Assembly: GCF_054482525.1 (NCBI RefSeq)
Contig: NZ_CM137006.1
DNA length: 64,000 nucleotides
Strand: one strand, 5' to 3'
The first letter of the stretch is position 1, and each line of letters opens with the position of its first letter. Below are positions 10,078 to 33,088 of the stretch, in pieces. The notes under the pieces were generated by a model. It searched no databases, was not told where the DNA came from, and saw only the letters and a list, made by a program, of their open reading frames with translations. Both the position numbers and the translations under genes were made by a program.

Positions 10078-10097
10078 GGTATAACAGGTATAAAGGT
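10078..10097. promoter_or_regulatory. Putative NanR operator (GGTATA repeats: GGTATAACAGGTATAAAGGT) beside a GATC site, in the fimB-nanC intergenic region
   Basis: GGTATA-type repeat motif read from the sequence about 420 bp upstream of nanC; NanR consensus recalled from the literature. Confidence 0.55.
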
Positions 10098-10515: not shown

Positions 10516-11232
10516 ATGAAAAAGGCAAAAATACTTTCTGGCGTATTATTACTGTGCTTTTCGTCACCATTAATTTCTCAGGCTGCGACACTGGACGTAC
10601 GTGGTGGATATCGTAGCGGAAGCCATGCCTATGAGACTCGACTCAAAGTCAGTGAGGGATGGCAAAATGGATGGTGGGCAAGCATGGAAAGTAATACCTG
10701 GAATACCATTCATGATAATAAAAAGGAAAATGCCGCACTCAATGATGTTCAGGTTGAAGTTAATTACGCGATTAAACTTGATGATCAATGGACGGTGCGC
10801 CCGGGAATGTTAACGCATTTTAGCAGCAACGGCACACGCTACGGACCCTACGTAAAACTGTCCTGGGACGCGACAAAAGATCTTAATTTTGGCATTCGCT
10901 ATCGTTACGACTGGAAAGCTTACCGACAACAAGACTTATCCGGTGATATGTCTCGTGATAACGTTCATCGTTGGGATGGATATGTCACTTACCATATTAA
11001 TAGTGATTTCACCTTCGCATGGCAAACGACGCTATACAGCAAACAGAACGATTATCGCTATGCAAACCACAAGAAATGGGCGACGGAAAATGCATTTGTT
11101 CTACAATACCATATGACGCCCGATATTACGCCATACATAGAATATGACTACCTTGACCGTCAGGGTGTTTACAACGGCAGAGATAATTTATCGGAAAACA
11201 GTTATCGCATTGGTGTGTCATTTAAACTGTAG
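10516..11232 (+). CDS. nanC: N-acetylneuraminic acid outer membrane channel NanC
   Basis: ORF 10507..11232; signal peptide; KdgM-family porin size; synteny. Confidence 0.85.
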   Translation: MKKAKILSGVLLLCFSSPLISQAATLDVRGGYRSGSHAYETRLKVSEGWQNGWWASMESNTWNTIHDNKKENAALNDVQVEVNYAIKLDDQWTVRPGMLTHFSSNGTRYGPYVKLSWDATKDLNFGIRYRYDWKAYRQQDLSGDMSRDNVHRWDGYVTYHINSDFTFAWQTTLYSKQNDYRYANHKKWATENAFVLQYHMTPDITPYIEYDYLDRQGVYNGRDNLSENSYRIGVSFKL

Positions 11233-11251
11233 TAGACAGGAGACAGTCACA

Positions 11252-12358: not shown

Positions 12359-12422
12359 CGCTTCAGGGCCCCGGTAAAGGGGCCTTGCTATCAATTTGTC
12401 ATTTGTATTACGCGAAAATTAT

Positions 12423-13409: not shown

Positions 13410-14154
13410 TACACGCTATTCCTTGTGCAATCAGGCCAGCTCGCAATAAAGGCAGCAACTATGCTTGAAGCCCCTTTCACCGCCGGATAAATAATATCCT
13501 TACGGCAATTGGTAACCGTATAAAATGCTTGATGTTTTGAACTGCCGTTGACGAAGATGAAGTAATCTGCTTTTTTGGCAGCATCCAATAACGCATCAAT
13601 GGCAACGCGATCATTGTTGAGCTCAATTCATAGCGCCGGATACAATTTCAATAAGGCGTCTTTACCACGTTGCGTGGCATTTTTGTAATACTGTAAAACA
13701 CCCGCTTTTTCCCGCGGAGATTCCGATACAACGGAGACGTTACGCTTGCTGGTATGGTTTCTGTCGGGAGGGTACTACCGATATCCTTACAAACGTAGAG
13801 CTGTTCCATCATGCGTGCCAACAACAGCATACGGATATCCAACCGTTCCCAGCGACGTAGGAACATCTCGCGAATGTTAATCCAGTACTGTAGTCGGCGA
13901 TCGCTATCACCAGATTCACAATCATAAAGAACCTCTGCAATATCAAGAGTATACTTGAGAATTTATGTCGATTCATTTTTCGTGCACAACATTTCGATAG
14001 CTTCGAGGGCATCATGGTATTCTTTGTGACTGAAGGTCCATGAAAGTAACGTATCCAGAATAATCCCTGTAGTTGCCAAAATGAGTTGATCACTACACAA
14101 TGATTTGTTTGTACAGAAGGAACGATTATTATATGTTCTTGTAGGGCAGAGCAC
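13397..14154 (-). pseudogene. Degraded gene remnant: four short minus-strand ORFs in different frames at the left island border
   Basis: Four abutting 60-95 aa ORFs with no intact long frame; could be a yjhR-like remnant but its identity is not determinable by eye. Confidence 0.35.
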
Positions 14155-14271
14155 GTTGCTACGGTAACAGCGTTGAAGATAATTTGGTCGAGACTGTAGT
14201 GGCCCAGTTTAAAAGGTAGCAGAATTTTAAAAGTGTCAGGTGCATAGAATTAAAAAAATGGAACTATAAAA

Positions 14272-16005: not shown

Positions 16006-17909
16006 ACACCTCTTTATTTGAAGATCTACTTACACTAATCAAGAAAAAGAGTTCGATAAGAAATACAGAGCAAGCAGTAGAGTTAATTTCATTATTTATT
16101 TTTTTACATTATATAAAATTATATCTTTATGAAAATGATAAAAGATTTTCAGATATAAAAAACATATCAAGCAACAACATTAATGAAATTAAATATTATT
16201 ACCAGCAACTATATGAAAGTTTTATTTTCTCGATAGATATAAAAAATATAAACCACGACATGCTTGAAAACCTCAGGAGTAAGATAGGTTTTTTAATTAA
16301 TAACATCAATGACCATGAAATAATTAAATATATAGATTATTCTATTTCGCAGATACATTCACTTACAGAATTCCATCAATATGCAAATTCTTATCAATCT
16401 TTAATTCTTAGGATGGTTAATGAATCGGGTCGTTCAGGTGAATATGTTACTCCATCTGCTTTAGTTCAGCTCATGGTTGAAATGTTATCACCTACAGATG
16501 GCACATCAATCTACGACCCAGCATGTGGAACTGGGGGTTTATTAATAGAGTCAGCACGATATATTAAAGGCAACAGTTTAAACAAAAACTTAAATTTAAA
16601 TTATTCCCTTATTGGTAATGACACATCATCATTTGCCTGTCTAATCTCAATTGTTAACCTTTTAATCAATAAAGAATTTAATTTTGAAATAATACTAAAA
16701 GATAGCTTAGATATAAATTATAAGAATAAAAAATATGACTTTGTTTTAACTAACCCACCATTTGGGAAAAAGAGCTGTTGGGATAATATTCATATTGACA
16801 CACATTATAAAGGACCTAATCTAGACTATTACTTCCTGGAGCATGTTATTGACTCTCTCGCTGTTAATGGCAAAGCAGCCATGATATTACCAGAGCGTTT
16901 TTTATATGATGTGAGTGAAGAGTGCATCACTCTTAAAGATAAGATCTTCCAAAATTATAATTTAGATTGTATTTTATCTATACCGTCAGGTGCATTGCTT
17001 CCTTACACTGCAGTAAAATTATGTATTCTTTTTATAAGTAATTCTGGCCCAACAGATAGAATATTTTTCTACAATTTAAATAATGGTGAAAAATACTCAC
17101 GTACAAATATTATAAAATTCGATGATTTTATAGATTTTTTAGAGTCAGCAAAAAATAGAACAATAACTGAACACTCCTGGATTATCAATATTAGTGATAC
17201 ACCTTCATCTTATAACTTACTCTTAAAAGATAAAGAGCGAAACTCATATGAGTTTCTTAGTGATTCTATAGTTAACATTGAACAGACAATACGTAATAAT
17301 GAATTATTACTAACAGAGTTGTCTTTATTAAGAGAAAAAATAGCAATCTTAGAGTCAACAATAAAAAATCATTCGCATGAATATGAATTTGAGAGACTTA
17401 AAGTTGGAAATATTGCAATAGTAAAATCCGGAAATTTATTACAAAAAAACAGGCTGTTACCCACTGGACCAATTCCTGTATACGGTGGAAATGGAGTTAT
17501 TGGATATAATAATGAAGCAATGGAAAATGGTGAAAATATTATTATTGGTAAGGTCGGAGCTCTTTGCGGAAACGTTCGGTATGTTCAAGGTGATATTTGG
17601 GTGACAAATAACTCATTAATTATTAAGAATTATTCACCAAATAAAGTTTTAACACCCTACCTTGCAAAATTATTATCTACTTTAAACTTAAGAAGGCTCG
17701 CCGTTGGTACCGCTCAGCAATATTTAACCACGACACAAATAAAAAATGTAGAAGTTAGTATTCCACCTTTAACGACCCAGTATAAATTAAATATTTGGCT
17801 TGATGAGTTAGATAATACGCTTGAACAATATAATAATCTCATTGAAAAAATAATGAATGATAAGCGAGAACTTAAAGAGAATTTGTATAAAGGTCTTTTA
17901 ATAGAATAG
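16002..17909 (+). CDS. Gamma-class N6-adenine DNA methyltransferase fused to an HsdS-like target-recognition domain (635 aa)
   Basis: Motif I DPACGTGGLL followed by motif IV NPPFG; C-terminal region resembles type I specificity-subunit TRDs; AT-rich; coupled to the upstream ATPase. Confidence 0.75.
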   Translation: MNTSLFEDLLTLIKKKSSIRNTEQAVELISLFIFLHYIKLYLYENDKRFSDIKNISSNNINEIKYYYQQLYESFIFSIDIKNINHDMLENLRSKIGFLINNINDHEIIKYIDYSISQIHSLTEFHQYANSYQSLILRMVNESGRSGEYVTPSALVQLMVEMLSPTDGTSIYDPACGTGGLLIESARYIKGNSLNKNLNLNYSLIGNDTSSFACLISIVNLLINKEFNFEIILKDSLDINYKNKKYDFVLTNPPFGKKSCWDNIHIDTHYKGPNLDYYFLEHVIDSLAVNGKAAMILPERFLYDVSEECITLKDKIFQNYNLDCILSIPSGALLPYTAVKLCILFISNSGPTDRIFFYNLNNGEKYSRTNIIKFDDFIDFLESAKNRTITEHSWIINISDTPSSYNLLLKDKERNSYEFLSDSIVNIEQTIRNNELLLTELSLLREKIAILESTIKNHSHEYEFERLKVGNIAIVKSGNLLQKNRLLPTGPIPVYGGNGVIGYNNEAMENGENIIIGKVGALCGNVRYVQGDIWVTNNSLIIKNYSPNKVLTPYLAKLLSTLNLRRLAVGTAQQYLTTTQIKNVEVSIPPLTTQYKLNIWLDELDNTLEQYNNLIEKIMNDKRELKENLYKGLLIE

Positions 17910-17989
17910 ATCACAGTAGCAGGGTGTCCACAATACACCCTGCTACTGGTTGCAAGTAAGTTGCAATATCTGTACTGCTGAAGCTACGA

Positions 17990-20900
17990 TTAATAATGCT
18001 CCTCAATATACCCATACGCCTTCTGGAACAACTCTTTATCTTTCCCTAGTCCAAACTGGGCCAAGGTCAGCAAAAGCGCCTTTTGGATTTCGCGCGGGCC
18101 ACTGTTAGAATTTTGCCAGCCATCAAAGCGGGTAGCTTTCACAATTTTATCAATTTGCTCTACAACATCACCGATTAACTTAGGGGTAGTTTCCGGACGT
18201 GTTTCGAGGAAAAGCTTAGTCAACGCCTGTTTATTATCAGCTTCAGTTACTGGACGCTCGCCCGTTTCGCGCTCGGCTTGAACGGTATCTTTCGCTGCAT
18301 CCAACAGGCCTTTCAACCAGTCAATGGCCTTGATAACACCAGCTTCATAGTCCTGACGCAGTTTTTCAAGGCGCTCGCCCAATGCCACAAATTTAGGATC
18401 ATGACTGCCGCGCAAACGTCCCATAAGATCAATCTCCAGGCGTTTAGCACGTTGTTCCTGCTCTTTAGCGGTCAGGGTAAAAATAGCGTGCTCGTCCATG
18501 ACCAACTCGTCAATATCATCGCGAATACGATTGATATCAGTATGCTCATGGATCATCTTGATTGTTTCGGGGCCAAGGGCAGCCCAAACAAGCGCACCTG
18601 TCTGCCCTACCGGACGCACCGATTCATAAATTTGCGCCAGCCATTTATAGTCCTGACGATAAGGGGTCAAAAAAGGGTCTGGGTTGATAGCTGACCATAA
18701 CTTGGATAACACACCAAAGCTGGCAGCGAATTCATCGCGCTTCTCGTTGGTCGGCAGGCATTCCTGCGCGGCCATAATACCTTCAAAACCAGCTATGGAC
18801 CGATCCACACCAGGGAAGAAGGACAAACATTTATTCAGTTGTAACGGCAATAGCTCTTTAAATGCCTCAATTCCCTCTACAACTCCTTCAATTTCTTCAG
18901 GGTTATAGGCCAGAGCGGTACGCAGATTTTCGAAAACGCCGAGGTAGTCGATAATTAATCCCATGTCCTTGCGTACAGTATCGGTTTCGTACAGCCGGTT
19001 AGTTCGGCACATGGCCTGCAGAAGGGTATGATCGCGTAGAGGCTTATCGAGGTACATGCAGTAGCAAATCGGGGCATCAAAGCCCGTAAGCAGCTTGGCG
19101 GTTACGATAATAAGCTGTAATGGATATTCAGGATCTTTAAAGCACTCAATTAGATCCTTTTGCACCTGCTCTTCGGCATCGATGTGCTGCCAGCGTTCAA
19201 AATCGACTTGTTTGACAGGCAGCTCCAACTCATCATGCCATTTAAGCCAATCCTTGTTGAGCTTGTCTTTTTTGCCACCCTCTTCAACTTTAATCGGAGC
19301 CTGGTCAACGTTCATAACCACTTCAACTGCATCAAAACCAAGCTTTTCACCGAGCAAATAATACATCTGCACACAGGCTTCGCGATCGTATACCACAACC
19401 ATGCCTTTCATCTTTTTCGGCATAACATGGTTGGTAAAATGCTCAGCAATATCATTACTCACCGCAGCCATACGTCTGGGAGATTTCAGCATAATAGCCA
19501 GCTTGCCGGCACGTCTGGACAATGCTGCTTTTTCTTCTTCATCCAGGTTGTTTTCGGTAGCCAGTTGCTCGAACTCTTCATTGATGGCATCACGATCCAC
19601 TCGGAGTTCAGCCAGCCGAGGTTCGAACTTCACCGGGTTAGTTGCGCCATCCCGGATCGACTGCTTATAGCTATAGCGGCTCATATAGCGACCTGGATCT
19701 TCTTCGGCACCGAACAATTTGAACGTATTACGATCAATGCCAGAAATCGGAGTACCAGTCAGGCCATAGAAGTGGGCATTGGGCAACGCCCAGCGCATTT
19801 TCTCGCCTAATCCCCCTTCCTGTGTACGGTGAGCTTCGTCAACCAACACAATGATATTGTCCCGGTTGTTCAGGCCATTAGGGTTGCTATCGTCAATTTC
19901 GATATCTTTAAATTTAAAGATGGTGGTGATTAAAATGCCACGGCTGTCTTGTTCAATGTATTCACCCAACTTTTTGCAGCTTTGCACTTTAATCAGATTC
20001 TTAACGTCGGCTCCACCAAAGGTCTCGTTAATTTGGCTGTCCAGATCTCGCCGGTCCACAACGATAAGTACCGTCGGGTTTTTTAACGCATTATCGGCAC
20101 GTAGCATTTTGGCGGCGTAAAGCATCAACAAGGATTTACCCGATCCCTGGAAATGCCAAATAAGACCTTTTTTTGGATAGCCTCTGCGAACACGCTCAAC
20201 AATTTGTTTTGCAGCTTCAAATTGCGGATAACGCGGCAAGATTTTAACGCGTTTAGGTGGAGTATTTTTGCCCGTTTTGACGGTTGAAAATAATGCAAAA
20301 GATTCCAGTAACTGCAATAAGGTTTGCGGATTTAACAAACTCTCACAGCTATTGAGTACCGATGCCAGACCCGGCAAAATTTCATCACGAAGCTCAGTAT
20401 TATGCCAGGGTCCCCAGTCTTTAACTCGGGCATTAATGGCTCCATAGGCAAAGGTTTTACCTTCGCTGGCAAAGCACAGCAAGTTAGGTACAAAGAAAGA
20501 TTCAACATTTTTCCAGTAGTACTTTTTGCCACCCATGAAATCGGCAGCACCGTCTTGCCAGGTCACGCTGGGGCGTGTTGCGGTTTTAACTTCGCCTACT
20601 ACCAGTGGCATGCCGTTCACATAAAGAACAATATCAAAATAGACTTCAGTGGCCGCGATATAGTGAACCTGCTGCGCCACTACAAAGTGGTTGTTCTCTA
20701 TATTGTCAAAATCAATCAGATTGATGGTGATATGGTCGCCATTCTTACCAAAAGGCAAGGTTTTGTCGGCCATCAACCATTCCTGGAAGTTTTCATTGGC
20801 CTTTACCAAGCCGGTATGGCGGGCTTCTAAAACCACTCCTCGCAGTTTGTAAATGACCTCATCGGCATAGTCAGGCTGTCTGCCGATATCAGGGTTTAAC

Positions 20901-21070
20901 GAACAAAGCGCGTCTTTTAGCCACTCATCAACGAATATATCCTGCGCTTGTTTAGGCAGGTTTTCACCGTGGCAGTAAGTCCACTTGACTCCGCTTAAAC
21001 CTTTTAAACGGTCGATAATTCCATTTTCTGTGACGGTTTGTTCGTTAAACATTTTATATTTCCTTATCAA
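17990..21070 (-). CDS. hsdR: Type I restriction enzyme R subunit HsdR (alternative start at 21052)
   Basis: 1026 aa; Walker A GSGKS and DEAH box (VDEAHRTQ); recognisable HsdR N-terminal nuclease region; operon with hsdM/hsdS. Confidence 0.9.
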   Translation of the reverse strand: MIRKYKMFNEQTVTENGIIDRLKGLSGVKWTYCHGENLPKQAQDIFVDEWLKDALCSLNPDIGRQPDYADEVIYKLRGVVLEARHTGLVKANENFQEWLMADKTLPFGKNGDHITINLIDFDNIENNHFVVAQQVHYIAATEVYFDIVLYVNGMPLVVGEVKTATRPSVTWQDGAADFMGGKKYYWKNVESFFVPNLLCFASEGKTFAYGAINARVKDWGPWHNTELRDEILPGLASVLNSCESLLNPQTLLQLLESFALFSTVKTGKNTPPKRVKILPRYPQFEAAKQIVERVRRGYPKKGLIWHFQGSGKSLLMLYAAKMLRADNALKNPTVLIVVDRRDLDSQINETFGGADVKNLIKVQSCKKLGEYIEQDSRGILITTIFKFKDIEIDDSNPNGLNNRDNIIVLVDEAHRTQEGGLGEKMRWALPNAHFYGLTGTPISGIDRNTFKLFGAEEDPGRYMSRYSYKQSIRDGATNPVKFEPRLAELRVDRDAINEEFEQLATENNLDEEEKAALSRRAGKLAIMLKSPRRMAAVSNDIAEHFTNHVMPKKMKGMVVVYDREACVQMYYLLGEKLGFDAVEVVMNVDQAPIKVEEGGKKDKLNKDWLKWHDELELPVKQVDFERWQHIDAEEQVQKDLIECFKDPEYPLQLIIVTAKLLTGFDAPICYCMYLDKPLRDHTLLQAMCRTNRLYETDTVRKDMGLIIDYLGVFENLRTALAYNPEEIEGVVEGIEAFKELLPLQLNKCLSFFPGVDRSIAGFEGIMAAQECLPTNEKRDEFAASFGVLSKLWSAINPDPFLTPYRQDYKWLAQIYESVRPVGQTGALVWAALGPETIKMIHEHTDINRIRDDIDELVMDEHAIFTLTAKEQEQRAKRLEIDLMGRLRGSHDPKFVALGERLEKLRQDYEAGVIKAIDWLKGLLDAAKDTVQAERETGERPVTEADNKQALTKLFLETRPETTPKLIGDVVEQIDKIVKATRFDGWQNSNSGPREIQKALLLTLAQFGLGKDKELFQKAYGYIEEHY

Positions 21071-22241
21071 TCATAGCTTGGCGCAGTTGAATAATTTTCC
21101 CCAAGGATTCATTGTGCCTATAAATATTCTCATACGAACACTTAAACGTATTAATGATTGATGCTTGAATATCGAAGGGAGGAATAGGAATTTGAATTTT
21201 TAAAAAGTTATCTTTATTTATTTTCTTCATACTTCCGCTAGTTCCAGCAGCAATACCTTGAATAGCTCGACGGCCATATGGAGACATCAGATAGTACATT
21301 AAAAACTCTTTTTTAATAAATTTTTCGTCAACAGCCAATCTCCACATCGTGTCTGGGAAAATCGTATTCCCATTGCCAGTCGATCCTTTATATTTTCCAA
21401 CTAAACCAACCAACTCCGCTGTATTAGAACGAGAGATTAACAAATCACCATCATTGCATGTTTTTCCTTTTAAAAAATGATCTTCTGTAATATTTTTTAA
21501 AGTAGTTTCTCTGAATCCTGATTTCGACAAACTATTTAGGTTCAGGACATAGTACCCAGTCCCGACTGCGGTTTCAACAGGAGAATATCCCCCTTCTGGA
21601 GAATCAATTAAAACATCTTTAATAGAACCAAAAGTCCATCCAACCGGAAGAGGAACACATTTATTCTCCCTCGAATCAAAGTAGTTATCAAAAGTCCGTA
21701 GACCAATAGCATATAATAATCTTTTAGCTGCTTTGAGAGCACTTAAATATAGAAGTTCTTTCTTTGCTAACGAATCAAAGATTATTAATGACGAGTATTG
21801 CTGTTCAATGCTCGGTATATTAACTTCTAGTTTATTTAAATCACTCCATTTTATTCGCGATGATAGCGAGCCGGCGGAATTTGCAATCACCTTTTCCATA
21901 AAAGAGGTTGATTGCATCAAGTGGGGTAAGTACCCATCCAATAAGTAGTTGTTTTTCCTTGGTTTAATTACCATTGCATCAGCAGAGCAAATACCATTAA
22001 TAGGGCTCACCGACACCCTTTTTAAATATGTATTTCGTCTACTAAAAATTATTTCGCCACACTTTACCTTAAAGGCTTGTGTTTTCAATTCAACGTCAGC
22101 CCCCCAATCATGAACATAAAAATAACCAGATTTCAAATGTTCCAACCCAATAAAATGCTTAGCATCGTCGCTTGTTGGGGAGATTCTAACCATAACCTGT
22201 TCAGCAAGATCACCAAATGTAACATTTCTTTTATTATTCAT
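21054..22241 (-). CDS. hsdS: Type I restriction-modification specificity subunit HsdS (start uncertain; ORF extends to 22292)
   Basis: About 400 aa, consistent with a two-TRD specificity subunit; lies between hsdM and hsdR with overlapping ends. Confidence 0.8.
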   Translation of the reverse strand: MNNKRNVTFGDLAEQVMVRISPTSDDAKHFIGLEHLKSGYFYVHDWGADVELKTQAFKVKCGEIIFSRRNTYLKRVSVSPINGICSADAMVIKPRKNNYLLDGYLPHLMQSTSFMEKVIANSAGSLSSRIKWSDLNKLEVNIPSIEQQYSSLIIFDSLAKKELLYLSALKAAKRLLYAIGLRTFDNYFDSRENKCVPLPVGWTFGSIKDVLIDSPEGGYSPVETAVGTGYYVLNLNSLSKSGFRETTLKNITEDHFLKGKTCNDGDLLISRSNTAELVGLVGKYKGSTGNGNTIFPDTMWRLAVDEKFIKKEFLMYYLMSPYGRRAIQGIAAGTSGSMKKINKDNFLKIQIPIPPFDIQASIINTFKCSYENIYRHNESLGKIIQLRQAMIDKEI

Positions 22242-23739
22242 TATTATATTTCTCTCTATCAATTTCATAGCCAATGCTATCCAAGCTATCAAACAATACC
22301 TTGATATTTCTTTTGAGTTTTACGCTACTGACTTTCCATGATTCGATAGCATGCTGAATATCATTCATTTTGACATTGTTTTGAGATTTCACATAAAGTG
22401 AAATCGATAAATTATAGAAATTTTCTTTAATAGCTTCGATATCCACTAAAGCGGTTATGTCGTTTTTTTTCTCCGGATTAAAATAAGCCTCGCATAATAC
22501 TTCCAAATCATCATCAGATAGGCGACTATGGGCACGTTCACGGGTAACATACTCAACCCCGTTGATAAACAAAACCTTATTTTTGCGTTCAGCAGGTTTA
22601 TTGCAATTAAGCACCACCAAGCAAGATTCCATCGGCGAGTTGTAAAACAGATTTGGTCCCAAACCAATCACCGCTTCGATTATGTCGGATTCAATCACCT
22701 GTTTACGAATGGCTTGTTCAGAATCACGGAACAGTACACCATGCGGCCAGAGCATGGCAGCACGACCGGTGTCGGGTTTTAAACTTTTGATTATATGGGT
22801 ATAAAACGCATAATCAGCACAACCTTGTGGAGGCACGCCATAGAGATTACGCCCATAGGGATCGGCTGCAAACTTGTCACGATTCCATTTCTTAATGGAG
22901 TATGGTGGGTTAGCAAAAATCACATCAAACTGCTTGAGCCGATCGTTTTCAATAAACTTTGGCTCAGCCAAAGTATCACCACGCAGCACATCAAACTCTT
23001 CAATATCATGCAGGAACATATTCATACGAGCAATAGCGGAAGTCAGCAGGTTCACTTCCTGACCATAAAGGTGCACAGAGCGCCACTCTTCTCCTCTTGC
23101 ACGAAGATCCATCACTGCATTTAGCAACATCCCTCCAGTGCCACACGTTGGATCATAGGCTGTTTCACCCGGTTTTAAGCCCATAATGCGCGTCATTAAA
23201 TGCACGACTGTTCGGTTGGTGTAGAACTCTGCTGCCGTATGACCGGAATCATCAGCGAACTTTTTAATCAGGTATTCGTAGGCCTCACCAAGATCATCCT
23301 GAGCGACAGATTTAATACCGAGCGGTATTTTACTGAAATGTTCAATCAGATCAGCCAGCAGATGATCGGGCAGGCGCTCTTTATTGGTCCACTGCGCATC
23401 ACCGAAGACGCCATGTAAACGCGGATTATTGGCTTCAATTAGTCGAAGCGCATTCTGGATCGCTTCACCAATGTTTTTACTGGTATTGCGTACCTTTTCC
23501 CAACTGGCTTCAGAGGGAATATTGAAACGGTGAAACATCGGCATGGCGGCATATTCAGCATCACCTTCATGGAGTTCCAGCGCTTCGTTATATTCTTCCA
23601 GATAGACATCTGACAGGCGTTTGTAAAACAGCAACGGGAAGATATACTGCTTGTAGTCTGATGCGTCAATTTGGCCACGAAGAAATTCGGCGGCTCCCCA
23701 GAGCAGCTCTTCCAGCTTTTTATTACTCATAGTACTCAT
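22234..23739 (-). CDS. hsdM: Type I R-M methyltransferase subunit HsdM (copy 1, 501 aa)
   Basis: Motifs DPTCGTGGML and ANPPYS; HsdM-like N-terminal domain. Confidence 0.9.
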   Translation of the reverse strand: MSTMSNKKLEELLWGAAEFLRGQIDASDYKQYIFPLLFYKRLSDVYLEEYNEALELHEGDAEYAAMPMFHRFNIPSEASWEKVRNTSKNIGEAIQNALRLIEANNPRLHGVFGDAQWTNKERLPDHLLADLIEHFSKIPLGIKSVAQDDLGEAYEYLIKKFADDSGHTAAEFYTNRTVVHLMTRIMGLKPGETAYDPTCGTGGMLLNAVMDLRARGEEWRSVHLYGQEVNLLTSAIARMNMFLHDIEEFDVLRGDTLAEPKFIENDRLKQFDVIFANPPYSIKKWNRDKFAADPYGRNLYGVPPQGCADYAFYTHIIKSLKPDTGRAAMLWPHGVLFRDSEQAIRKQVIESDIIEAVIGLGPNLFYNSPMESCLVVLNCNKPAERKNKVLFINGVEYVTRERAHSRLSDDDLEVLCEAYFNPEKKNDITALVDIEAIKENFYNLSISLYVKSQNNVKMNDIQHAIESWKVSSVKLKRNIKVLFDSLDSIGYEIDREKYNNE

Positions 23740-25235
23740 ACCTCGAACCCTTCTTTGATAAGCAGGGCCTCCAGCTCCTCTTCTGCTTTTTCCAGCTCAG
23801 CCAGCTTCCGTTGAAAATCTTTGAGCGCCTCTTCCACAGTGATGGTTTCTTCTTCGAGTGGCTTTTGCACATAACGAGCAATATTTAGATTGAAGTCATT
23901 TTCTTCAATCTCCTTCAGAGGAACCCAGCGTGCAACGCCTTCGATTTCTTTTGCATCTGGCCCTTGTTGCGCCTGGTCATGATAGATTTGGTATATTTCA
24001 TCGGCCTGCTTGTTGGACAGCGTATTCTGCGCACGTCCCTTGGTATAGATTTCTTCAGCATTGATGATCAATACATGATCTTTATGCGCGGCCGGACGTG
24101 ATTTACGCAGCACCAAAATACACGCAGGAATCCCAGTTCCATAGAACAGGTTGGAAGCAACACCAATAATCGCCACAATGCGATTCTCTTGCAGTAATTT
24201 GGTTCGAATTGCCCCCTCTGCGCCGCCACGAAACAGCACACCATGAGGTAATACGACTGCCATACGTCCATTGTCGTTAAGTGAAGCAAACATATGCTGC
24301 ACCCAGGCAAAATCACCATTTGTTTTAGGCGCCAGGCCATATTGCTTACGGCCATAGGGATCGTTCGACCACAGATCGTATCCCCATTCTTTTAAGCTAA
24401 ACGGTGGGTTGGCAACAACGCAGTCAAAGGTTTCTAAACGATCGCTTTTTAAAAATTTAGGTTCGCGTAAAGTATCCCCTCGGACAATATCGAAATCTTC
24501 CTGTCCATGCAGGAACAGATTCATACGCGCAATAGCTTCCGTCGTTAAGTTCTTTTCCTGACCCTTGATTTTTAGTAAACGCGGATCACCACCATTTTCT
24601 TTTACATGGTGGATGGTCTCAAGCAGCATACCACCGGTACCACAGGCGGGATCGTAGACACTCTCACCGGCTTTTGGATCAAGAATGTTAACCATCAAAC
24701 GAACGATAGTTCGTGGGGTATAGAACTCACCTGCTTTCTTATTGGCTTTGTCTGCAAAGCGTTTGATCAGATACTCGTATGCGCGCCCCATATCATCGTC
24801 ACGGACACTAGAAACGCCAAGGTTCACCTTATTGAAGTGATTGAGTAACGTAGCCAGTAACTCATCAGAAAGGCGTTCTTTATTGGTCCAGCTGGCATCG
24901 CCAAAAATGCCATGCAGTTTAGGGTTTGCCAGTTCTATACCACGGAAGGACTCTTTTAAAGCCTGACCGATGTCCTTGGTCTCAGCGAAAACATCGCGCC
25001 AGTGGCAATTTTCAGGTATCTGAATACGGTGAAACATCTTGCCCTTGGCAAGCTCTGCATCCCCAACGCTCTCCATCGCATCAGCAAATTCTTCGTCATA
25101 CACGTCACAAATGCGCTTGAAGAACAAGATGGGGAAAATGTACGTTTTGTAATCTGACGCATCAATGGGCCCTGTAATAATATGGGCTGCATGCCATAGA
25201 TGGGCCTCGAGATCTTTTAGGTTAATCAGTGTCAT
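23736..25235 (-). CDS. Second, divergent HsdM-like N6-adenine methyltransferase (copy 2; extended ORF reaches 25337)
   Basis: Motifs DPACGTGGML and ANPPFS; about half of residues identical to copy 1 by eye; ATGA overlap with copy 1. Confidence 0.85.
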   Translation of the reverse strand: MTLINLKDLEAHLWHAAHIITGPIDASDYKTYIFPILFFKRICDVYDEEFADAMESVGDAELAKGKMFHRIQIPENCHWRDVFAETKDIGQALKESFRGIELANPKLHGIFGDASWTNKERLSDELLATLLNHFNKVNLGVSSVRDDDMGRAYEYLIKRFADKANKKAGEFYTPRTIVRLMVNILDPKAGESVYDPACGTGGMLLETIHHVKENGGDPRLLKIKGQEKNLTTEAIARMNLFLHGQEDFDIVRGDTLREPKFLKSDRLETFDCVVANPPFSLKEWGYDLWSNDPYGRKQYGLAPKTNGDFAWVQHMFASLNDNGRMAVVLPHGVLFRGGAEGAIRTKLLQENRIVAIIGVASNLFYGTGIPACILVLRKSRPAAHKDHVLIINAEEIYTKGRAQNTLSNKQADEIYQIYHDQAQQGPDAKEIEGVARWVPLKEIEENDFNLNIARYVQKPLEEETITVEEALKDFQRKLAELEKAEEELEALLIKEGFEV

Positions 25236-25478
25236 TGTTGTCTCTTTTCGATCCTGCAGTGCTTGAACTCTCAGCAACTCATGGATTTCACAGTAAAAAA
25301 GCAAGCAAAGCGATTCCACAACCACCTGAGCGTTCAATACGTATGACGCCTTTACCCAAGTTGCTTAAATCAAGGAAATTGCCAGAGATAATACTCTGGC
25401 ATCAGAATGATACCAAGTTGAAGGGCTGATTTCCGCATCAATACCTTGTGGTAATAGGGGATTACTCTTTTACCCTTA

Positions 25479-26046
25479 TTGGCGCAAAATGGCGGCATTT
25501 ACTCATTTCTCCATCGGAGCATCTTACGCGCTATAACCACTCTCGTTTTTTCCTATTCCCATGCAGATGAAGCACTACGCAATGAACTTGAGAAGCATCT
25601 CTCCCCGCTGAAGCGAACCGGGAAGATCACAACATGGCACGATCGCCGCATCGTTCCTGGTCAGGAGTTCGAACGTCAGATCGACCACTATTTTTCGCAA
25701 GCAGATATCATCCTGATCCTGATCCTGATCCTGATCAGCAGTGACTTTATTGCTTCTGATTACTGCTATCAGGTAGAGATGAAAAACGCACTGGAACGGC
25801 ATGACCGGGGCGAGGCGGTGGTCATTCCGGTAATTTTAAGAAACTGTGCATGGCATCAGTTATAATTCGGCAGCATTATGGCGGCGACTATCGACGGTAA
25901 ACCCATCACTAAGTTTGCCACCCACGATGAAGGCTACGTTCAGGTCGTCGAGGCCGTCTCGCGTGCCATTGCCCGGATGGAAGCCAAAAAACTACAGCAA
26001 ACCATACATATCCCTTCACCGGCTCCGGCGAATCCGATCTTTTAGG
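25479..26046 (+). pseudogene. TIR-domain gene interrupted by an in-frame TAA stop at 25863-25865; the same frame continues to TAG at 26044-26046
   Basis: TIR-like signature ...VFSYSHADEAL...SSDFIASDYCYQVEM...VIPVILRNCAW, then stop, then ...FGSIMAATIDGKPITKF... in the same frame. Confidence 0.6.
25710..25733. repeat. (ATCCTG)4 hexanucleotide repeat inside the TIR gene, encoding an ILILILIL tract
   Basis: Read directly from the sequence. Confidence 0.9.
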
Positions 26047-26445
26047 GAGTAGATTCCGTTTTTACACCGCGTTCAAGCAACCTTACTCTATCTGTTATAG
26101 CCAGGATAATGTTGTTCGAAACAGTATTAACGAAATTGTAAGCCTTGCTGATAACGGCCAGACTCTTGGTTTTCGTGCTCTGATGGGAGGCTTCAGTCGT
26201 GGAACTTCACGAGACGAACTATTGACCAATGAAGGTATGTCGGAACATCTCTGGGAAATGTTCTTCGGGCTAATCAAGCAAAGAATGTCCCGATAATTTG
26301 CCATATCACAGTCGGGCATACTGCCCGATTTTTGTGCTGTCATTATTGGCAATATCTCAATAGGCGTTGAGAAATGGTGCAATTTAATCTTGCCAGAGCG
26401 CTGTTACTTGGGGACGAAATGAATGGGCTCCTGCTGTAGTTACAG

Positions 26446-26475
26446 CAACGCCTGTATATACAAAAACAGGCGTTG
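26446..26475. terminator. 10-bp perfect inverted repeat (CAACGCCTGT / ACAGGCGTTG) just 3' of the Mrr-like gene; hairpin without a clear U-tract
   Basis: Inverted repeat seen in the sequence; no T-run on either strand. Confidence 0.35.
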
Positions 26476-26480
26476 CAAAT

Positions 26481-27476
26481 TCATGCAGGCAAATACGTTT
26501 TCTTAAGCGGCACCAACAGCTTAGTTTCAATATCCACCTGCTCATAGTTTTCCACTAACGCGCGTACCAAATCGTCCAGCGTCCATAGCGTCAACGGGAT
26601 TGTAGAACGATCGGCCTCATAACGCGCATCCTTGCTGAATCCGCCGGTACTAACATACAGCCCGCGATCGTCTTTATGACGGCCACCGATAAAGCTACGG
26701 ATTTGCTGGCTGCTCATCTGTTCCCGCCGGTGCTTCACCTCAACAATAATGCGCGGATTTTCAAACCCAAATCCGTCAGGCGAAGCAATGATGTCTTTCC
26801 CACGGTCAGCACCCGCAGGCGATACCTGAGTTTTATATCCCATGCTGCGTAACACGCCAGCGACCAGATTCTGCATCTCATCCCAGTCGAGACGGTTGAT
26901 ACGATCCTTGATGCCTTCAAAAGCGATCATTTCCATGTCGCGCAGAGGATTAGAAACGACCTCATCCTCTTCACCTGAAACAGGTACTTCCGGCACGATA
27001 TCTGAGACAGGCTTATTGCCCTGCACTAATTCATTCACAGCAAAATCAGGCACCTGAAAAACTGTCAGCGTTGAACCAAGGGTGTTTCTGGTTGCATCAC
27101 TCAGACTATCGCGCTTAATCTCTTCCGCATTCCACTTCACTTTACGGGCGATGCCCATGCCATCTTCAAGCCACTCGGCATGAAACTCAAAATCTGACGC
27201 TATTTTCCCTATTAAATAGGTCCGATTAGAAGGTGAATAAGTGATAGCCCAGTCGCCTTTCTGCATTTCATTCACAAAGCGCCAGACCTGAGAAGCTCCA
27301 GAACGAACTGTGCCTGGCTTAGTCTGTGGCTCAAGCTCCTGATACCGGGTAAACAACTGCTCTCTTGAGCATCCAGGTTTCACATAGGGAGCGAGCTGCG
27401 ACCAACCAATTGCAACAACCTGTTTGTCTCTGAAGTCGTCGTACAATTTTCCGCCATCACCGCGGATCATCCACAT
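26481..27476 (-). CDS. Mrr-like (type IV-like) restriction endonuclease with an uncharacterised N-terminal domain
   Basis: C-terminal PD-(D/E)xK-type signature ...GKDIIA...RIIVEVKHRR...QQIRSFIG typical of Mrr catalytic domains; start chosen at MWMIRGDGG (ORF extends to 27644). Confidence 0.65.
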   Translation of the reverse strand: MWMIRGDGGKLYDDFRDKQVVAIGWSQLAPYVKPGCSREQLFTRYQELEPQTKPGTVRSGASQVWRFVNEMQKGDWAITYSPSNRTYLIGKIASDFEFHAEWLEDGMGIARKVKWNAEEIKRDSLSDATRNTLGSTLTVFQVPDFAVNELVQGNKPVSDIVPEVPVSGEEDEVVSNPLRDMEMIAFEGIKDRINRLDWDEMQNLVAGVLRSMGYKTQVSPAGADRGKDIIASPDGFGFENPRIIVEVKHRREQMSSQQIRSFIGGRHKDDRGLYVSTGGFSKDARYEADRSTIPLTLWTLDDLVRALVENYEQVDIETKLLVPLKKTYLPA

Positions 27477-27597
27477 CTTAGTCGCCACAATAATTCCTTC
27501 TGAAAATACTTCATCGTTATACCGGGACGTGATCATTCCATTCAGCCATCTTATCCAGGGAAAAACACCGATAAGATGGCTAATCAAAATGTCTGTT

Positions 27598-30500
27598 CTA
27601 AACCTGACGCCTCTCAAGACTATTATAAATAGCCTCAATTTCACCTTTCAGGTTATCACCAGAGTAAACCATCGATGTATCGTATCGTTCATATCGCGCT
27701 TCCCGTGTCGCACTAAACCAGTTGAACGATCCCACGCATAGCAAACCATCATCACCAATAACAATTTTGCTATGAACACGGTTTACCAGCTTTGTAGCAA
27801 TACCCAGCGCATTCAGTTTCTCCAGCGCCGCTTTAAGGTTCTGCTGCTTCTCTTTTCGCTTCTCAAAATCTTTATGTTCAGTGTTGTAGCTTCTGTCAGT
27901 GACTATCGTGACGTTAATACCACGTGAACACGCCGCAATCATGGAATCAAGAAAACCCGTTTGCTCCAGCTTTTGCCAGGTCAGCCATGGAGAAACTATC
28001 GTGATGTGTTTATCGGTATTTTCAAACGTCTGATTCAGGAAATTATCATGCTGCTCCACACCATGGAGTGTGTAGATTTTGGTCTCGGAAGTTTTTAAAT
28101 CCTTACGCTCTTTATAATCAAAAGAGAGCGCATTCTTCTCGGACTCAAAGAGATATTTTGCCAGTAATCCCCGCGGAGATGAGGGAGGCTGGATCTCAAA
28201 CAGATCCATATCGCCGAAGACCAGGAAGCTATCCTTCGCACGGGAGACTGCAACATTCAGCATGCTGTTATCGCTATCAATAAACCCGCCATCTTCATGT
28301 TTTGAATAGACTGGCGAGAATATAACAATCGCTCTTTCCGCTCCCTGAAGAGAGTGCACGGTGCCCACGGTGAGCGACTTTTCATTCGCGCCCGTACTGA
28401 TACCTTGTTTACCCAGCGCCTGTTTGATAGTGGATACCTGCGCGCTAAAAGGCGTCACGATACCGACAACTTCATGAAGCGATTTGCCGTAATGCGCTTC
28501 AATATTTTGCTGGTTCTCTGCCAACCAGGCCGCTATCGTTTCAGCCTCAAGCAAATTATATCTACTTCCACTACTTGCCAGCTCTCCTTTACCATCAATA
28601 TGGAGATAACCCATTGCGGGCATTAAATTGCTCTCTTCGCGCCCTCTTTTAGGCAACAACTTACCGTGATAGCAGAGCGTATTACAGTATCCAATAATAT
28701 TATCGAAGCACCGGCGGTGTTCATATAGGTACATACCACGAGCCAGTTCGGGATCATATTGATAGCGCGAAGCAAACTGCGCTATTTTCATAACGCTGCC
28801 AGATGCGGCACTTTTACCAAGGTCTGCGATTGCCGTATATTTCTCGGTAATCTCTTCTTGCGTACTGCCAGACAGAATTTTTTCCGCAAGCATGTTACCG
28901 ACATCAATCGCGGGAGCAATACTCCATATTGGCGGGATCTGCTCCGTATCGCCAATCACTAATGCCTTCTTAGCTAATGCAAACGAGGCAGCAGCCACTT
29001 CAGGAAGCACCTGCCCGGCTTCATCGACAATGAGTAAATCGGCAAAATCATACAAATAACTTTTCTCGAATTTACGTTGTCCTTTGTGCTCACTTATCTG
29101 CATATTGCCGGGCAGCATATAGCATGTCATCACCACACATGGAGTGAGTTTCATTCGACGTTGCCAACGGGCGGTTACCCCTTTAGCGCCTTTTTTCTTC
29201 TTCTCTTCCTGCAGATCATCAATTCTGGCCATATCCATCAGCCAACGACCTTCCCAGTAGTGAGTCGTCAGTAAAAATGCAGGGAAGCGAATCTGCGTAT
29301 CAGCCAGTTCATCGGCCTGTGAGAAGCTCAGTTCCTCGTCGCCCTCATACCCTAAATCAAATGCCAGCCTCTGCCACTCCTGAACCGCCTGCTGTTCTTT
29401 AAGAACGATTTCATGGGCGGAGTCAATCTGCTGCCGGTATGTTGTTTGCTCGCGCTCAGCGGAATTGAGCAGCCCATCAATATTACGTTCGATAGTTTCA
29501 GGATCAGACCACTGATTTCCTGCAATCAGCGCGCCTAATTTATCTTCGAGAAACAACTGTATTTGGTACTGTCGCTTACTACGAACCGCTGGGAGCCAGG
29601 AAAATAATGAATAGATCAGTGATTCACCGGCGCGATATTTTTTCCATTCCGTTTTAGCACTCTTCAGTAGAGTGACTTTTTGTTCTTGTCCGGAAAGTAA
29701 TTTATTTAAATTATCGAGATATTGCTCAATGTCGTTAGCAATAAGCTCACGCGCAGCCCGTACCTGGCTTAACGTTTGCCATGTTGCGTTCAGTCTTATC
29801 AGTTGCTCGGATTTTGCTGCCAACTGACCATGCAGGAGTTCAATGACCTTTTCAGGGGATGAACACTCTTTTTCAGGAAAAGCTGCCTTAGCTTTCTCGA
29901 GATAAAACAGCAGTGCATCCTCTACATACTCTTTTGACTCAACCTGGTTGAAGAAATCTTCAGTTTGATATTTTTTGGCTGCCTCAGCTTTACGAGTGCT
30001 TGAGGGAAAATAAGCGCCGAAGCTTTTCAGCTCTGGCAACCATCGTCCGGCCATCGCACCTGAACCTTGCGAAAAGTCTTTCCCGAATGCCTCAATAATG
30101 TTCGTTACAGCCTGGTTATTCGTTGAAGTCGCGATAATAACCGGAGGCTCAGATTTTTCGAGAGCTGCTCTGGCCCACTGCGTGGCGATGATAGAAAGCA
30201 CCAGCGTGGTTTTTCCGGTTCCCGGAGGTCCATTAACAGCAAGGATATCGCCATGTCTTGCATCCAGAAAATGGCTTAAGGCATCGCGCTGAGCCTTTGC
30301 CAGCGGAAACTTATCTCCGGAGTGTCCAAGCCTGTCGCTGAATTTTGCTCCTGGAGCCAGCAAAGACTCTGCAGCATGAACCTCTCGCGAGGCGAAGCGA
30401 TTGAAGAGCGGCACATCCTTCTTGCAAACAAGCAGGTGATCATAAAGAGAAAGGATATGGAAACTGGCACCGCCAGATTGCGCCGTTTTAACAATATAAC

Positions 30501-31113
30501 CGTGCTCAGCGAGTTCATATTGCTCAGGATTTTTAATCCAGTCGCCGGCAACGTTCTTCAGCAGCCTCTCTGAATCATCCAGATATTGATGCCACTCCTG
30601 CTGCAAGGCTGCATATCGTGCTTCCCGTTCTTCATCCGTTTCGGCAGTCTTATCAATGCTGTCATCAAAGTTGATAGAGAACGAGGTATGGATTGTCTTG
30701 TATTTGTCATACTGCCCAATCTCACCAATCGAAAATGCTCCTTTTGGCAAAGGTTCAAGCAGGTCTCTGGGAATGGAGGTCGCTGGCGTCGGATATAAAA
30801 AACCCTCACGGCTGAGCAAGGCTGGCGTCACTAGCGGGGTAACAATATCAGGTGCGCCTGCGGAACGGTCCTTACCATGCTGCAGTAACCGAAAATAAAC
30901 TTTTGGGCGCAAGACGACATCGACCGTTTCGACATCGTCTTTTTCTCCCTCAAAAAATTTACTGACAATCGCTTCGTCAAGACGTCCCGCCGCTATCCCA
31001 TGCCAGTGAGTGAAATTTTTGGCGTCTTTCCGTTCAAAACTGCCCTTTCCTGACTCAGCATCCGCAAGCGAGTTGCGCCAGTATGAGGCAAACCCTAAAG
31101 CATTTTCATCCAT
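27598..31113 (-). CDS. Upf1-like SF1 helicase fused to a C-terminal phospholipase-D-family nuclease (1171 aa; Mokosh type II-like)
   Basis: Walker [11 protein letters not shown], Walker [21 protein letters not shown] and [16 protein letters not shown] helicase motifs; C-terminal HxK(x)4D motif [19 protein letters not shown]. Confidence 0.7.
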
Positions 31114-31438
31114 TACCAGTCCTATGACTCAATGAAATCCATTGATTTATCGAATATAAAATCACCGTATGGATAACTATTGTCCACGTTGCAAGGCTGG
31201 CTGCAATGTTTTGTTCACGCTTCGATACAAATACTCAGGTTATACGGAGTTCAGAAAACGACCATATCATGTTGCATGGCACATAAAAGCTTTATAACCG
31301 AAGCAGCAAAGGATTACCGGCTGCGCAGCACGCCCCGAAAGCCCGTGAGCCCTGCTGGACAGCGTTCAGTGCAATATTGGAGCCTGTAAGTTCAGAAAAT
31401 ATCGCTGTCGAAGATGGTTCTGTATGTAGGCGCGCCAG

Positions 31439-31816
31439 CTATCGTTTTGTCCGATGCTTGCGAATAAAAGCATTCAAAATGTCGCCTTCACCATGCATGA
31501 CAGAAAAAGAATATTCACATTCTTTCTTTATCAAGATTCCACATAATTCCTTGTGCAAATCAACATTAACTCCCTTTCCTTTCTGCGCTTTCTTCACACC
31601 GAGCTCACATGAACTGATTAATTCAACGGTACAGGGTTTCTTCAGATAATTCACACCATCAATTAAGCCCTGGAGAATGCATCTATTTGCGGTCGTATCA
31701 CTGTAGGAGAAAGTCAGATATTTTATTTTTCCTTCGTATTCCAACACAACCTCCGCCGAACCTTCACGTGTTGCAGCATCACAACCTCCTGTTGAATATA
31801 TTTTTACCATCTTCAT
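31439..31816 (-). CDS. Small hypothetical protein (125 aa) with weak RNase HI-like resemblance; the usual catalytic acidic residues look substituted
   Basis: By-eye similarity of VKIYSTGGC / TANRCILQG to RNase HI VEIFTDGSC / TNNRMEL; speculative. Confidence 0.3.
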   Translation of the reverse strand: MKMVKIYSTGGCDAATREGSAEVVLEYEGKIKYLTFSYSDTTANRCILQGLIDGVNYLKKPCTVELISSCELGVKKAQKGKGVNVDLHKELCGILIKKECEYSFSVMHGEGDILNAFIRKHRTKR

Positions 31817-31884
31817 TTTGTAACTTTCCCCTTACCAAACGAATCGCGACATCCTATATCAAAGGCATTCTCGTCAAAACTTAA

Positions 31885-32664
31885 TTATCTCAGTAAATTC
31901 TTCCGATGCCACTCCAGATAACAATACGATTCAACAGAAAACGCCTTTATTTTCTCCGGCAACAAACATTGCTCTTTAACGCTAATATCCAGCGCCTTAC
32001 TAATTAATAAATGCCCATCGTTCTCAAACGAAATCCATCCCTGATCGAATAGAATATCAATATGCGCAGCCAATATAATTCCATTAAAAGGATCAAGCCG
32101 TTCATTCCCATTCTCGCAGGCAGCCCACGGCTTTATATGGCTGGTACGCAGTAAAGGTGCAAACGTCGTTCCCGTAACAGGACATGCCGGATACAACATA
32201 AGACAATTTTTCCGAAAGGTACCTTGCCCCAGCCGTGCCGCAATCAGCTGCTCGCGTACGGTATCTTCAATACTTTTATCCTGCTGAATAGCAAGACAGT
32301 CACGTTGTGCCTGTTCATCTCCAGCAGAAGATATTAACGAAAGAACGCGCTGCTCAATCGCACTGTCTGAAAGCACACTCATTCGCTGATACACACGCTG
32401 CGCTGAATGAGAAAGCGCAGCAGGAGCGCCCTGCTCGTCAAGCCAGCCGACACGCACATCACTAAGCCAGGAATCAAAACGGTCACGACTATTTTTCAGA
32501 CTATTGTGAAACTCGCTGGCAGTTTTGCCCGCTCCAAATCGAGGATAAAACAAGGCAAAAGCCTCTTTCCATTTCTGAACACCCAGTCCTGCGGGTGGTT
32601 GAGATTTTCCGTACTTCGACAAATACCACGCCACTTCAAGCAAATCGTCTTCAGAGCTATTCAA
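31885..32664 (-). CDS. HNH-motif endonuclease-like protein (259 aa)
   Basis: C-terminal CPVTG...SHIKPW...NG..L...H..FD.GWISF pattern characteristic of HNH nucleases. Confidence 0.5.
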   Translation of the reverse strand: MNSSEDDLLEVAWYLSKYGKSQPPAGLGVQKWKEAFALFYPRFGAGKTASEFHNSLKNSRDRFDSWLSDVRVGWLDEQGAPAALSHSAQRVYQRMSVLSDSAIEQRVLSLISSAGDEQAQRDCLAIQQDKSIEDTVREQLIAARLGQGTFRKNCLMLYPACPVTGTTFAPLLRTSHIKPWAACENGNERLDPFNGIILAAHIDILFDQGWISFENDGHLLISKALDISVKEQCLLPEKIKAFSVESYCYLEWHRKNLLR

Positions 32665-32967
32665 TATTACGTCCTGTTTTTGCAGAGTAAATTATCACCA
32701 GATTATATCTGAAAAGATCGTTTACTAAACTGATCTGCTTACCTGCAAAACGGTACTGCAAACGCTAATACTCAGAACCATTAAGAGGAACAAGCAGGTG
32801 CATTCCGCTGCCATCGGTCAGTTTGTATTGCTTATCCCCTGCCTCTAGGTACAAGCATTTTCGAAACGGAAATACCATTATCTGTTGGTAGATGTACGTT
32901 GAAGTTGGTTCACCTGGAGAGAGTTAATATAGCGGGAAAGGTAGGTAAATACTGGATTTCAGGTATA

Positions 32968-33003: not shown

Positions 33004-33088
33004 TGGTGCCGAAGGCCGGACTCGAACCGGCACGTATTTCTACGGTTGATTTTGAATCAACTGCGTCTACCGATTTCGCCACTTCGGC
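33004..33088 (-). tRNA. leuX: tRNA-Leu (anticodon CAA), leuX
   Basis: Reverse complement reads GCCGAAGTGGCGAAATCGGTAGACGCAGTTGATTCAAAATCAACCGTAGAAATACGTGCCGGTTCGAGTCCGGCCTTCGGCACCA, 85 nt with CAA anticodon loop and CCA end. Confidence 0.95.

Follow-up and report, generated by a model that had tools for sequence, protein, structure and literature searches.

Do two small genes near the tRNA gene leuX act together, do they serve the helicase-nuclease gene that follows them, or do they merely travel in each other's company? The question is raised by positions 31,439 to 32,664 of a 64,000-nt stretch of DNA (contig NZ_CM137006.1 of NCBI RefSeq assembly GCF_054482525.1; hereafter the window), which hold, on the minus strand, a gene for a 125-amino-acid (aa) protein and one for a 259-aa protein. 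In identical genomes of Escherichia coli, RefSeq labels the former a 'hypothetical protein' and the latter an 'HNH endonuclease'. A preliminary description, made from the sequence alone, had seen in the small open reading frame (ORF) a local likeness to RNase HI with substituted catalytic positions and in its neighbour an HNH-type motif, and it had left open whether the two cooperate with each other or with the helicase-nuclease. Both genes are real cargo of a phage-defence island. Our answer is that the tRNA-proximal end of this island probably, if far from certainly, consists of three independent single-gene modules co-inherited in one E. coli lineage. Neither of the two genes is categorically new, and the more interesting lead is the family of dead RNase HI proteins to which the 125-aa protein belongs.

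The 125-aa protein is predicted to be a complete, non-catalytic RNase HI fold

The small ORF (31439..31816, minus strand, ATG start) does not reach the curated RNase HI cut-offs. The NCBIfam model PRK00203 matched residues 1-69 with an E-value of 3.1e-11 and 43 bits (cut-off 160), and Pfam PF00075 gave 6.4e-5 and 23.6 bits (cut-off 25.8). A profile of the protein family found E. coli RNase HI in the PDB almost over its full length (E-value 3.9e-17). AlphaFold2, supplied with a 53-sequence alignment, returned a model with the RNase H order of strands and helices, comprising the five-stranded sheet and helices A to E (predicted local distance difference test 93, predicted template modelling score 0.86). 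When this model was compared with the PDB by Foldseek, the top 50 matches were all RNase HI (E-value approx. 5e-12, template modelling score approx. 0.75, range 0.67 to 0.78). Thus, the similarity noted at the N-terminus is real and covers the full fold.

In the alignment to E. coli RNase HI (RnhA, a type 1 RNase H of PF00075), which shares the fold and 28% identity, all four carboxylates of the DEDD site are replaced. D10 corresponds to T9, E48 to I47 and D70 to S69, as the first inspection of the sequence had suspected, and additionally D134 to N115. As the four acidic catalytic residues are gone, the protein should be unable to cleave, and RNA-strand cleavage of RNA/DNA hybrids is predicted to be absent. 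The earlier proposal of a non-catalytic RNase H-like fold is upheld by the profiles, the AlphaFold2 model and the Foldseek comparison, on which the reading as a complete, non-catalytic RNase HI fold is based. The basic protrusion, or handle, of E. coli-type RNase HI is also deleted (a gap of approx. 15 residues in the RnhA alignment), whereas the protein still has residues equivalent to T43, N45 and N100, keeps the strand-1 G-x-C and is basic, like RnhA. A further difference lies in the genomic setting: RnhA is encoded by a housekeeping gene, the 125-aa protein by a gene on mobile elements and defence islands.

The possibility that the small ORF is an already known component of defence was rejected; PADLOC was blank for it, and PHROGs gave only the generic RNase H family phrog_531.

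An undescribed family of dead RNase HI proteins

The family is diverse and previously undescribed. We found no paper on it in the literature searched and no dedicated model in Pfam, NCBIfam, PHROG or PADLOC. A word-index search had yielded only 11 clusters (E. coli, Klebsiella, Pantoea and one metagenome), which made the family seem tiny. An exhaustive HMMER search covering 1.84 billion representatives corrected its size to 547 proteins with E-values of at most 1e-3, of which 134 reach 1e-10 and 20 reach 1e-30. Among the best 150 of the 547, 63 are stand-alone domains of approx. 120-160 aa and the remainder carry extensions; the recognised fusion partners are GIY-YIG (two proteins), the DnaG CHC2 zinc ribbon (one), a DUF559/Vsr-like domain (one) and the GreA/GreB C-terminal domain (two). 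Tandem duplications occur as well, most extensions were not recognised, and the weakest matches grade into canonical RNase H1 with a hybrid-binding domain. The family is confined to plasmids, integrative elements and defence islands.

Catalytic carboxylates are lost in nearly all of 108 aligned family domains. In the D10 column, D is not among the eight commonest residues, which are mostly T, I, V, R, S or L; the E48 column holds I in 67 domains and E in two, and the D70 column A or S in 68. By comparison, the T43 column is T or S in 105 domains, the N45 column N in 91 and the N100 column N in 104, and the median isoelectric point of the family is 9.1. In the RNase H-substrate complexes of Nowotny and co-workers, residues of the T43, N45 and N100 type reportedly line the phosphate-binding pocket and the substrate groove. 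Full-length homologues with 40-54% identity keep the length, the fold and these conserved residues, and such family-wide conservation shows that this type of protein is functional. A conserved cysteine cluster serving as a new metal site was discarded as an explanation, only C12 and C100 exceeding 60% conservation.

Most likely, we infer, the 125-aa protein binds nucleic acid without cutting it, an RNA/DNA hybrid being the obvious candidate ligand. In that case plasmids, integrative elements and defence islands would carry it as a cargo complete in itself, and it would not be dedicated to either neighbour as a subunit. A protein that binds hybrids without cutting them could serve as a hybrid reader of natural origin, much like the dead RNase H probes that have been engineered for R-loop mapping, and its family could show how mobile elements and defence systems handle intermediates of replication and transcription.

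Non-catalytic modules of this kind have precedents. In TALON/TOTE, inactivated RNase H-fold domains are fused to YprA helicases in a defence context, and HicB provides a partial RNase H fold in a toxin-antitoxin context. Compared by description, these are fused domains or partial folds without detectable RNase HI similarity, whereas the 125-aa protein is free-standing and complete. A HicB-type partial fold was rejected for the same protein, which is a complete RNase HI homologue; a hicAB or hicB-like gene lies in the vicinity of two family members only and is not recurrent.

The HNH protein resembles VcaM4I behind a different N-terminal domain

The gene for the 259-aa protein (31885-32664, minus strand) starts with TTG. 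The HNH-type motif that had been read from its sequence was borne out by Pfam HNH_2, which matched residues 161-214 with an E-value of 1.2e-11 (44.7 bits vs. a cut-off of 21), and by the PADLOC 'HNH' model (7e-20). All of 42 homologues keep H176, N194 and D203; at position 201, 36 of them have H and six have N. Compared with the PDB, the profile of these 42 homologues returned one strong family, aligning residues 136-307 of entry 6YEX with residues 89-260 (E-value 1.5e-50). This entry is VcaM4I, an EVE-HNH modification-dependent restriction endonuclease, in which residues 1-147 form the EVE domain, 148-178 a linker helix with auto-inhibitory action and 179-309 the HNH domain, which acts as dimerisation module (PMC7897488).

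The linker helix and the beta-beta-alpha-Me nuclease core (aa approx. 99-259 plus stop codon; 31885..32370, minus strand) are homologous to this characterised member. In contrast, the position of the EVE reader is taken by a different helical domain of approx. 95-98 aa. This N-terminal part (approx. 98 aa; 32371..32664, minus strand), presumed to be the specificity or sensor domain, is helical with a short hairpin, belongs to no recognised family and is conserved among orthologues as strongly as the nuclease core. No recognisable modification-reader domain (PUA/EVE, SRA, winged helix (wH) or SBD) was found in the HNH protein. In architecture it also resembles the wH-HNH as well as the PUA-wH-HNH Type IV enzymes of the HhiV4I family, which have 224-283 aa and combine a small helical N-terminal DNA-reading domain with an HNH domain (PMC11037411). 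However, these enzymes sense Dam-type N6-methyladenine and are toxic in Dam+ E. coli (PMC11037411), whereas the present gene resides in E. coli, and no match of the HNH protein to a winged-helix reader was obtained in sequence or structure.

A Type II restriction-modification system with an HNH nuclease has a cognate methyltransferase gene next to it, and here none is adjacent. The neighbours of the HNH gene are, at one end, leuX with an integrase remnant and, at the other, the small ORF; the orthologues in Yersinia and Kosakonia have no adjacent methyltransferase either. Our best reading of the homologies is that the HNH protein would act on its own as a Type IV-like enzyme, its reader domain being of an unrecognised kind; by analogy with VcaM4I, we infer that it may depend on DNA modification. 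In such a stand-alone nuclease, a dimeric HNH core would be held behind an auto-inhibitory linker helix until the N-terminal domain detects in foreign DNA some feature that Dam+/Dcm+ E. coli DNA does not have, and then sets the nuclease free. The protein adds an unrecognised N-terminal domain to the VcaM4I-type nucleases, a family that has already given useful modification-specific enzymes, and may read a DNA mark not yet covered.

A search for the N-terminal domain in combination with other effectors gave only truncated fragments of the HNH gene itself. N-terminal fragments (approx. 80-105 aa) are met with frequently in Klebsiella as well as on the margin of an E. coli integrative and conjugative element (ICE; L014 6001-6246; P0279-P0299), indicating frequent truncation or pseudogenisation of the nuclease.

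Association within one DNA block and changing partners outside

Among 5426 complete E. coli genomes the small ORF occurs in 141, the HNH gene in 144 and mkoC, the gene of the neighbouring helicase-nuclease, in 839. The window belongs to an E. coli chromosome. The 2-kb stretch around the two ORFs is 100% identical in several complete E. coli genomes, including AST240 and O166:H15 strains, and three narrower queries from the locus were 100% identical to E. coli PCN033. In profile and structure searches both the RNase H-fold and the HNH matches were significant, and the preliminary description's call for a co-occurrence check revealed that both genes are conserved elsewhere, yet not as a conserved pair or trio.

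HNH orthologues with 58-64% identity were located in a Salmonella ICE, in Yersinia after a DISARM-like operon and in Kosakonia among metabolic genes, and none of them has an RNase H-like neighbour. In Klebsiella, six contexts contain the small ORF together with the same 325-bp spacer, mkoC, an Mrr_cat gene and a 200-aa gene. Similarity to the window starts 41 bp upstream of the small ORF there, and the small ORF and mkoC are preceded by four different genes, none of them HNH. One contig (L039), a frameshift-ridden assembly, was left out of account. A metagenome scan returned 26 loci. Sixteen of them represent the same block, 12 with the HNH gene; one close locus is of the Klebsiella type with its stop codon, and in another (L047) only a 41-aa remnant of HNH, together with a different integrase, precedes a small ORF that is intact. 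The other ten hold distant homologues of the small ORF (40-50% identity), and no HNH, MkoC or Mrr gene lies within their flanks. Likewise, neither HNH nor MkoC was present in the twenty-odd distant family contexts examined. The constant association of the small ORF with mkoC, mostly accompanied by HNH, thus belongs to one recently shared DNA block, and outside it the partners change. Provisionally, there is no conserved pairing of the HNH gene and the small ORF, or of either with the helicase-nuclease, outside the co-inherited E. coli block.

Several observations weigh against full independence, most of them in favour of a two-gene system in which the RNase H-like protein would sense or hold an RNA/DNA hybrid or another nucleic-acid structure, or restrain the nuclease in the manner of an immunity protein, and the HNH protein would be the effector. 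The two genes share a strand, the 68-bp gap between them contains no predicted terminator-like hairpin, and the whole block of HNH gene, small ORF and leuX is found in 140 E. coli genomes, the genes being practically always together. Owing to this linkage and arrangement, co-transcription or cooperation within the E. coli lineage is possible. Weak promoter-like sites at 31912-31884 and 31824-31795 (minus strand) are no more numerous than in shuffled sequence. The E. coli co-occurrence stems from a single inherited block with 90-100% identity and is therefore not independent evidence, and the 12 of 16 close metagenome loci that keep both genes are set against L047 with its HNH remnant. A hint of a nuclease partner comes from the family itself, which is repeatedly fused or adjacent to nucleases, namely GIY-YIG, DUF559 and, on two enterobacterial plasmids (L035 4478-6483; L036 4433-6483), a Nuc-like phospholipase D (PLD) nuclease gene located 40 bp upstream of a 42%-identical member. 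Nevertheless, an HNH_2 gene occurred in none of approx. 20 distant family contexts, and the HNH orthologues of three other genera manage without the RNase H-like gene. The Klebsiella copies that lack an HNH neighbour carry a nonsense codon, and the small ORF lies exactly 325 bp upstream of mkoC in every close relative from E. coli, Klebsiella and metagenomes. The N-terminal 98 residues of the HNH protein, in turn, drew no Pfam match even at E-values up to 5 and no convincing structural match. The characterised enzymes of the VcaM4I type, finally, are self-sufficient (PMC7897488). E. coli linkage, nuclease fusions or adjacency, and decay of the HNH-less Klebsiella copies keep alive both this explanation and a role of the small ORF in Mokosh defence; the non-conserved neighbourhoods elsewhere weaken both, and we regard the two-gene system as unlikely. 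The result that the small ORF belongs neither to Mokosh II as defined nor to a conserved pair with HNH guards against the false call of a new two-gene system.

A broader version of cooperation would make the dead RNase HI a portable reader of RNA/DNA hybrids, or of another structure, that works in cis or in trans with whichever nuclease is adjacent, the leuX trio being a cooperating sensing-and-cutting unit. The cis cases would be the fusions to GIY-YIG, the Vsr-like domain and the primase zinc ribbon, and the trans cases the plasmid PLD Nuc gene and, here, the HNH protein and/or the PLD domain of Mokosh II. We consider both the general idea and this assignment of cases doubtful.

MkoC is a Mokosh type II protein

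By its sequence matches, the neighbouring helicase-nuclease is Mokosh type II, an Upf1-like superfamily 1 helicase with a C-terminal PLD nuclease (mkoC, 27598..31113, minus strand). The 1171-aa protein matched the PADLOC MkoC model PDLC03924 end to end (aa 1-1169, 1692.5 bits) and contains the Pfam domains AAA_11, AAA_12 and PLDc_2. Mokosh type II was described as a single gene (bioRxiv 10.1101/2022.05.11.491447), and its product purifies as a monomer of approx. 132 kDa (10.1101/2025.07.10.664194). The gene downstream of the small ORF encodes a full-length MkoC, and the small ORF travels with mkoC in close relatives. Mokosh type II itself was defined and tested as a single gene.

One could imagine the RNase H-like protein as an accessory or regulator of Mokosh II that, for instance, presents or senses the RNA/DNA intermediates hypothesised as the Mokosh target. 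The constant distance to mkoC would fit, as would the persistence of the block of small ORF, mkoC and Mrr gene while the upstream gene changes. The small ORF is not present wherever Mokosh II is, however, given 839 E. coli genomes with mkoC and 141 with the small ORF. Approximately 83% of the mkoC-bearing genomes lack it, and since most mkoC loci do without it, the Mokosh II system as defined does not include it. In these genomes (approx. 700-730), similarity to the window ends 102-146 bp upstream of mkoC at 84-90% identity, and an intact P4-type integrase then follows at leuX or at a tRNA-Phe gene. In UTI89 and SF-468, for instance, the integrase is directly followed by mkoC and the small ORF is absent. 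The presence of mkoC in approx. 700 genomes without the small ORF shows that MkoC does not need it, in line with defence by a single gene and a monomeric protein. Moreover, the Klebsiella copies beside mkoC have a stop at codon 10, and no distant homologue lies near an MkoC gene in the contexts examined. An accessory role is quite improbable, and MkoC would be an ordinary Mokosh type II gene working alone.

The spacer between the small ORF and mkoC (31114..31438, minus strand, 325 bp) was delimited by megablast and blastn boundaries and was blank in Rfam; a scan of the spacer and its flanks for a hidden RNA element detected only the tRNA. As 31114-31259 is the only part common to the mkoC genomes without the small ORF, it presumably represents the mkoC promoter or leader.

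Neighbourhoods of other family members

The distant metagenome members are surrounded mostly by unknown proteins and, in addition, by a serine recombinase, a UvrD helicase with a metallo-beta-lactamase protein, or an M78 peptidase. A 54%-identical member is preceded, at a distance of 41 bp, by a DUF1173 gene (432 aa; L024-L027; L024: 4661-5959). This pair recurs on four contigs whose flanks differ in part; traX or integrase genes are in the vicinity. On the two plasmids with the Nuc-like gene, the family member is succeeded by an ORF of 65 aa and a gene for SRAP (DUF159), with a gene for a 3'-5' exonuclease in the vicinity. Pantoea plasmids carry a family member approx. 630 bp after repB, beside SIR2-HerA; a scan of a genome collection with a narrow alignment yielded one Pantoea locus. 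Further members are near hicAB, a hicB-like gene, fic/phd or toxN, and some reside in integrative elements with anti-restriction genes. A pattern scan of IMG/VR found no family members.

These neighbourhoods bear on the possibility that the small ORF is a stranded establishment or anti-defence factor of a plasmid or ICE, which would mask hybrids or primers from host RNase H or serve a host system as a decoy. Plasmid members near RepB, TraX, DUF1173, the PLD Nuc-like gene and SRAP, members in integrative elements with anti-restriction genes and the lack of matches to the family in the phage collections searched are all consistent with such a function, while those among HicAB, ToxN, Fic/Phd and SIR2-HerA keep company with toxin-antitoxin and defence genes instead. 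The idea overlaps with that of an independent, non-catalytic nucleic-acid binder and differs from it in biological role only; as a separate explanation it is decidedly improbable.

A phage gene was rejected as an identity of the small ORF: in a tblastn search of 50,697 phage records, every match was a canonical RNase HI with its catalytic site intact.

Constraint on the small ORF

Between close alleles, the ratio of nonsynonymous to synonymous substitution rates is 0.14-0.79 for the small ORF, 0.03-0.20 for HNH and 0.08-0.19 for mkoC, the first range being indicative only since it rests on 9-15 substitutions per pair. By these sequence comparisons, the small ORF is under weaker constraint than HNH and mkoC, and it is knocked out in Klebsiella, where the copies (L006-L011 at 7932-8309; L054) have a GTG start and TGA at codon 10. 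Gene callers consequently report a 102-aa N-terminally truncated product (514 contig-index blocks).

That the small ORF is a decaying, functionless RNase HI remnant in this lineage, as its elevated ratios and the Klebsiella nonsense codon and ATG-to-GTG start change might suggest, is very unlikely, because no E. coli allele among those examined has a disrupted ORF, the AlphaFold2 model is very confident, the substitutions are family-wide rather than random, and the 40-54%-identical homologues keep length, fold and specific residues across hundreds of clusters.

The leuX end of the defence island

The two ORFs form the leuX end of a defence island bordered by leuX and nanS/nanM. The gene leuX itself (33004..33088, minus strand), encoding tRNA-Leu with anticodon CAA, was located by ARAGORN and by the Rfam tRNA model (59.4 bits) and is the integration site of the island. 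The genes had been described as lying directly beside it; they do occupy the tRNA-proximal edge, but they are not in direct contact with leuX, as 339 bp with an integrase remnant intervene. This remnant (32735..32839, minus strand) comprises the N-terminal aa 14-48 of a P4-type (DUF4102/Arm-DNA-bind) integrase with an in-frame stop. In tblastn it matched the UTI89 integrase in 27 of 35 residues (77%, E-value 7e-16), and the integrase body is missing. At the matching position of strain JNE25-003, RefSeq annotates a partial DUF4102 pseudogene. Given the location of the remnant between leuX and the HNH gene, the HNH gene and the small ORF occupy the former site of the integrase body. The leuX island has lost its own integrase, and none is annotated in the island of an identical genome by RefSeq.

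In that annotation, the order from leuX is HNH endonuclease, hypothetical protein, 'AAA domain-containing protein', restriction endonuclease, TIR-domain protein, type I restriction-modification system and N6 methylase with AAA ATPase. In the window, positions approx. 9000-27500 hold a TIR-domain protein, a type I restriction-modification system in which two genes specify M subunits, and a pair of AAA ATPase and N6 DNA methylase. By the annotation of the identical genome, defence genes are densely packed in this remainder of the island, and no gene for mobility has survived in it.

The restriction-endonuclease-like gene after mkoC (Mrr_cat/DUF8426; 26481..27596, minus strand) has an uncertain start, RefSeq giving 26481-27470. 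It comes after mkoC in the window, in each of the six contexts from Klebsiella and in 12 of the 16 close metagenome loci (L006-L011; L040-L055), and is absent from the mkoC loci of UTI89 and SF-468. Possibly, it accompanies this Mokosh II allele without being obligatory. In Yersinia intermedia (L018-L020 1-5780), the HNH orthologue is situated 34 bp downstream of the DISARM-like operon of helicase, DUF1998(MZB) and PLD genes, on the same strand, and the locus is next to a P4-type integrase beside lptF/lptG.

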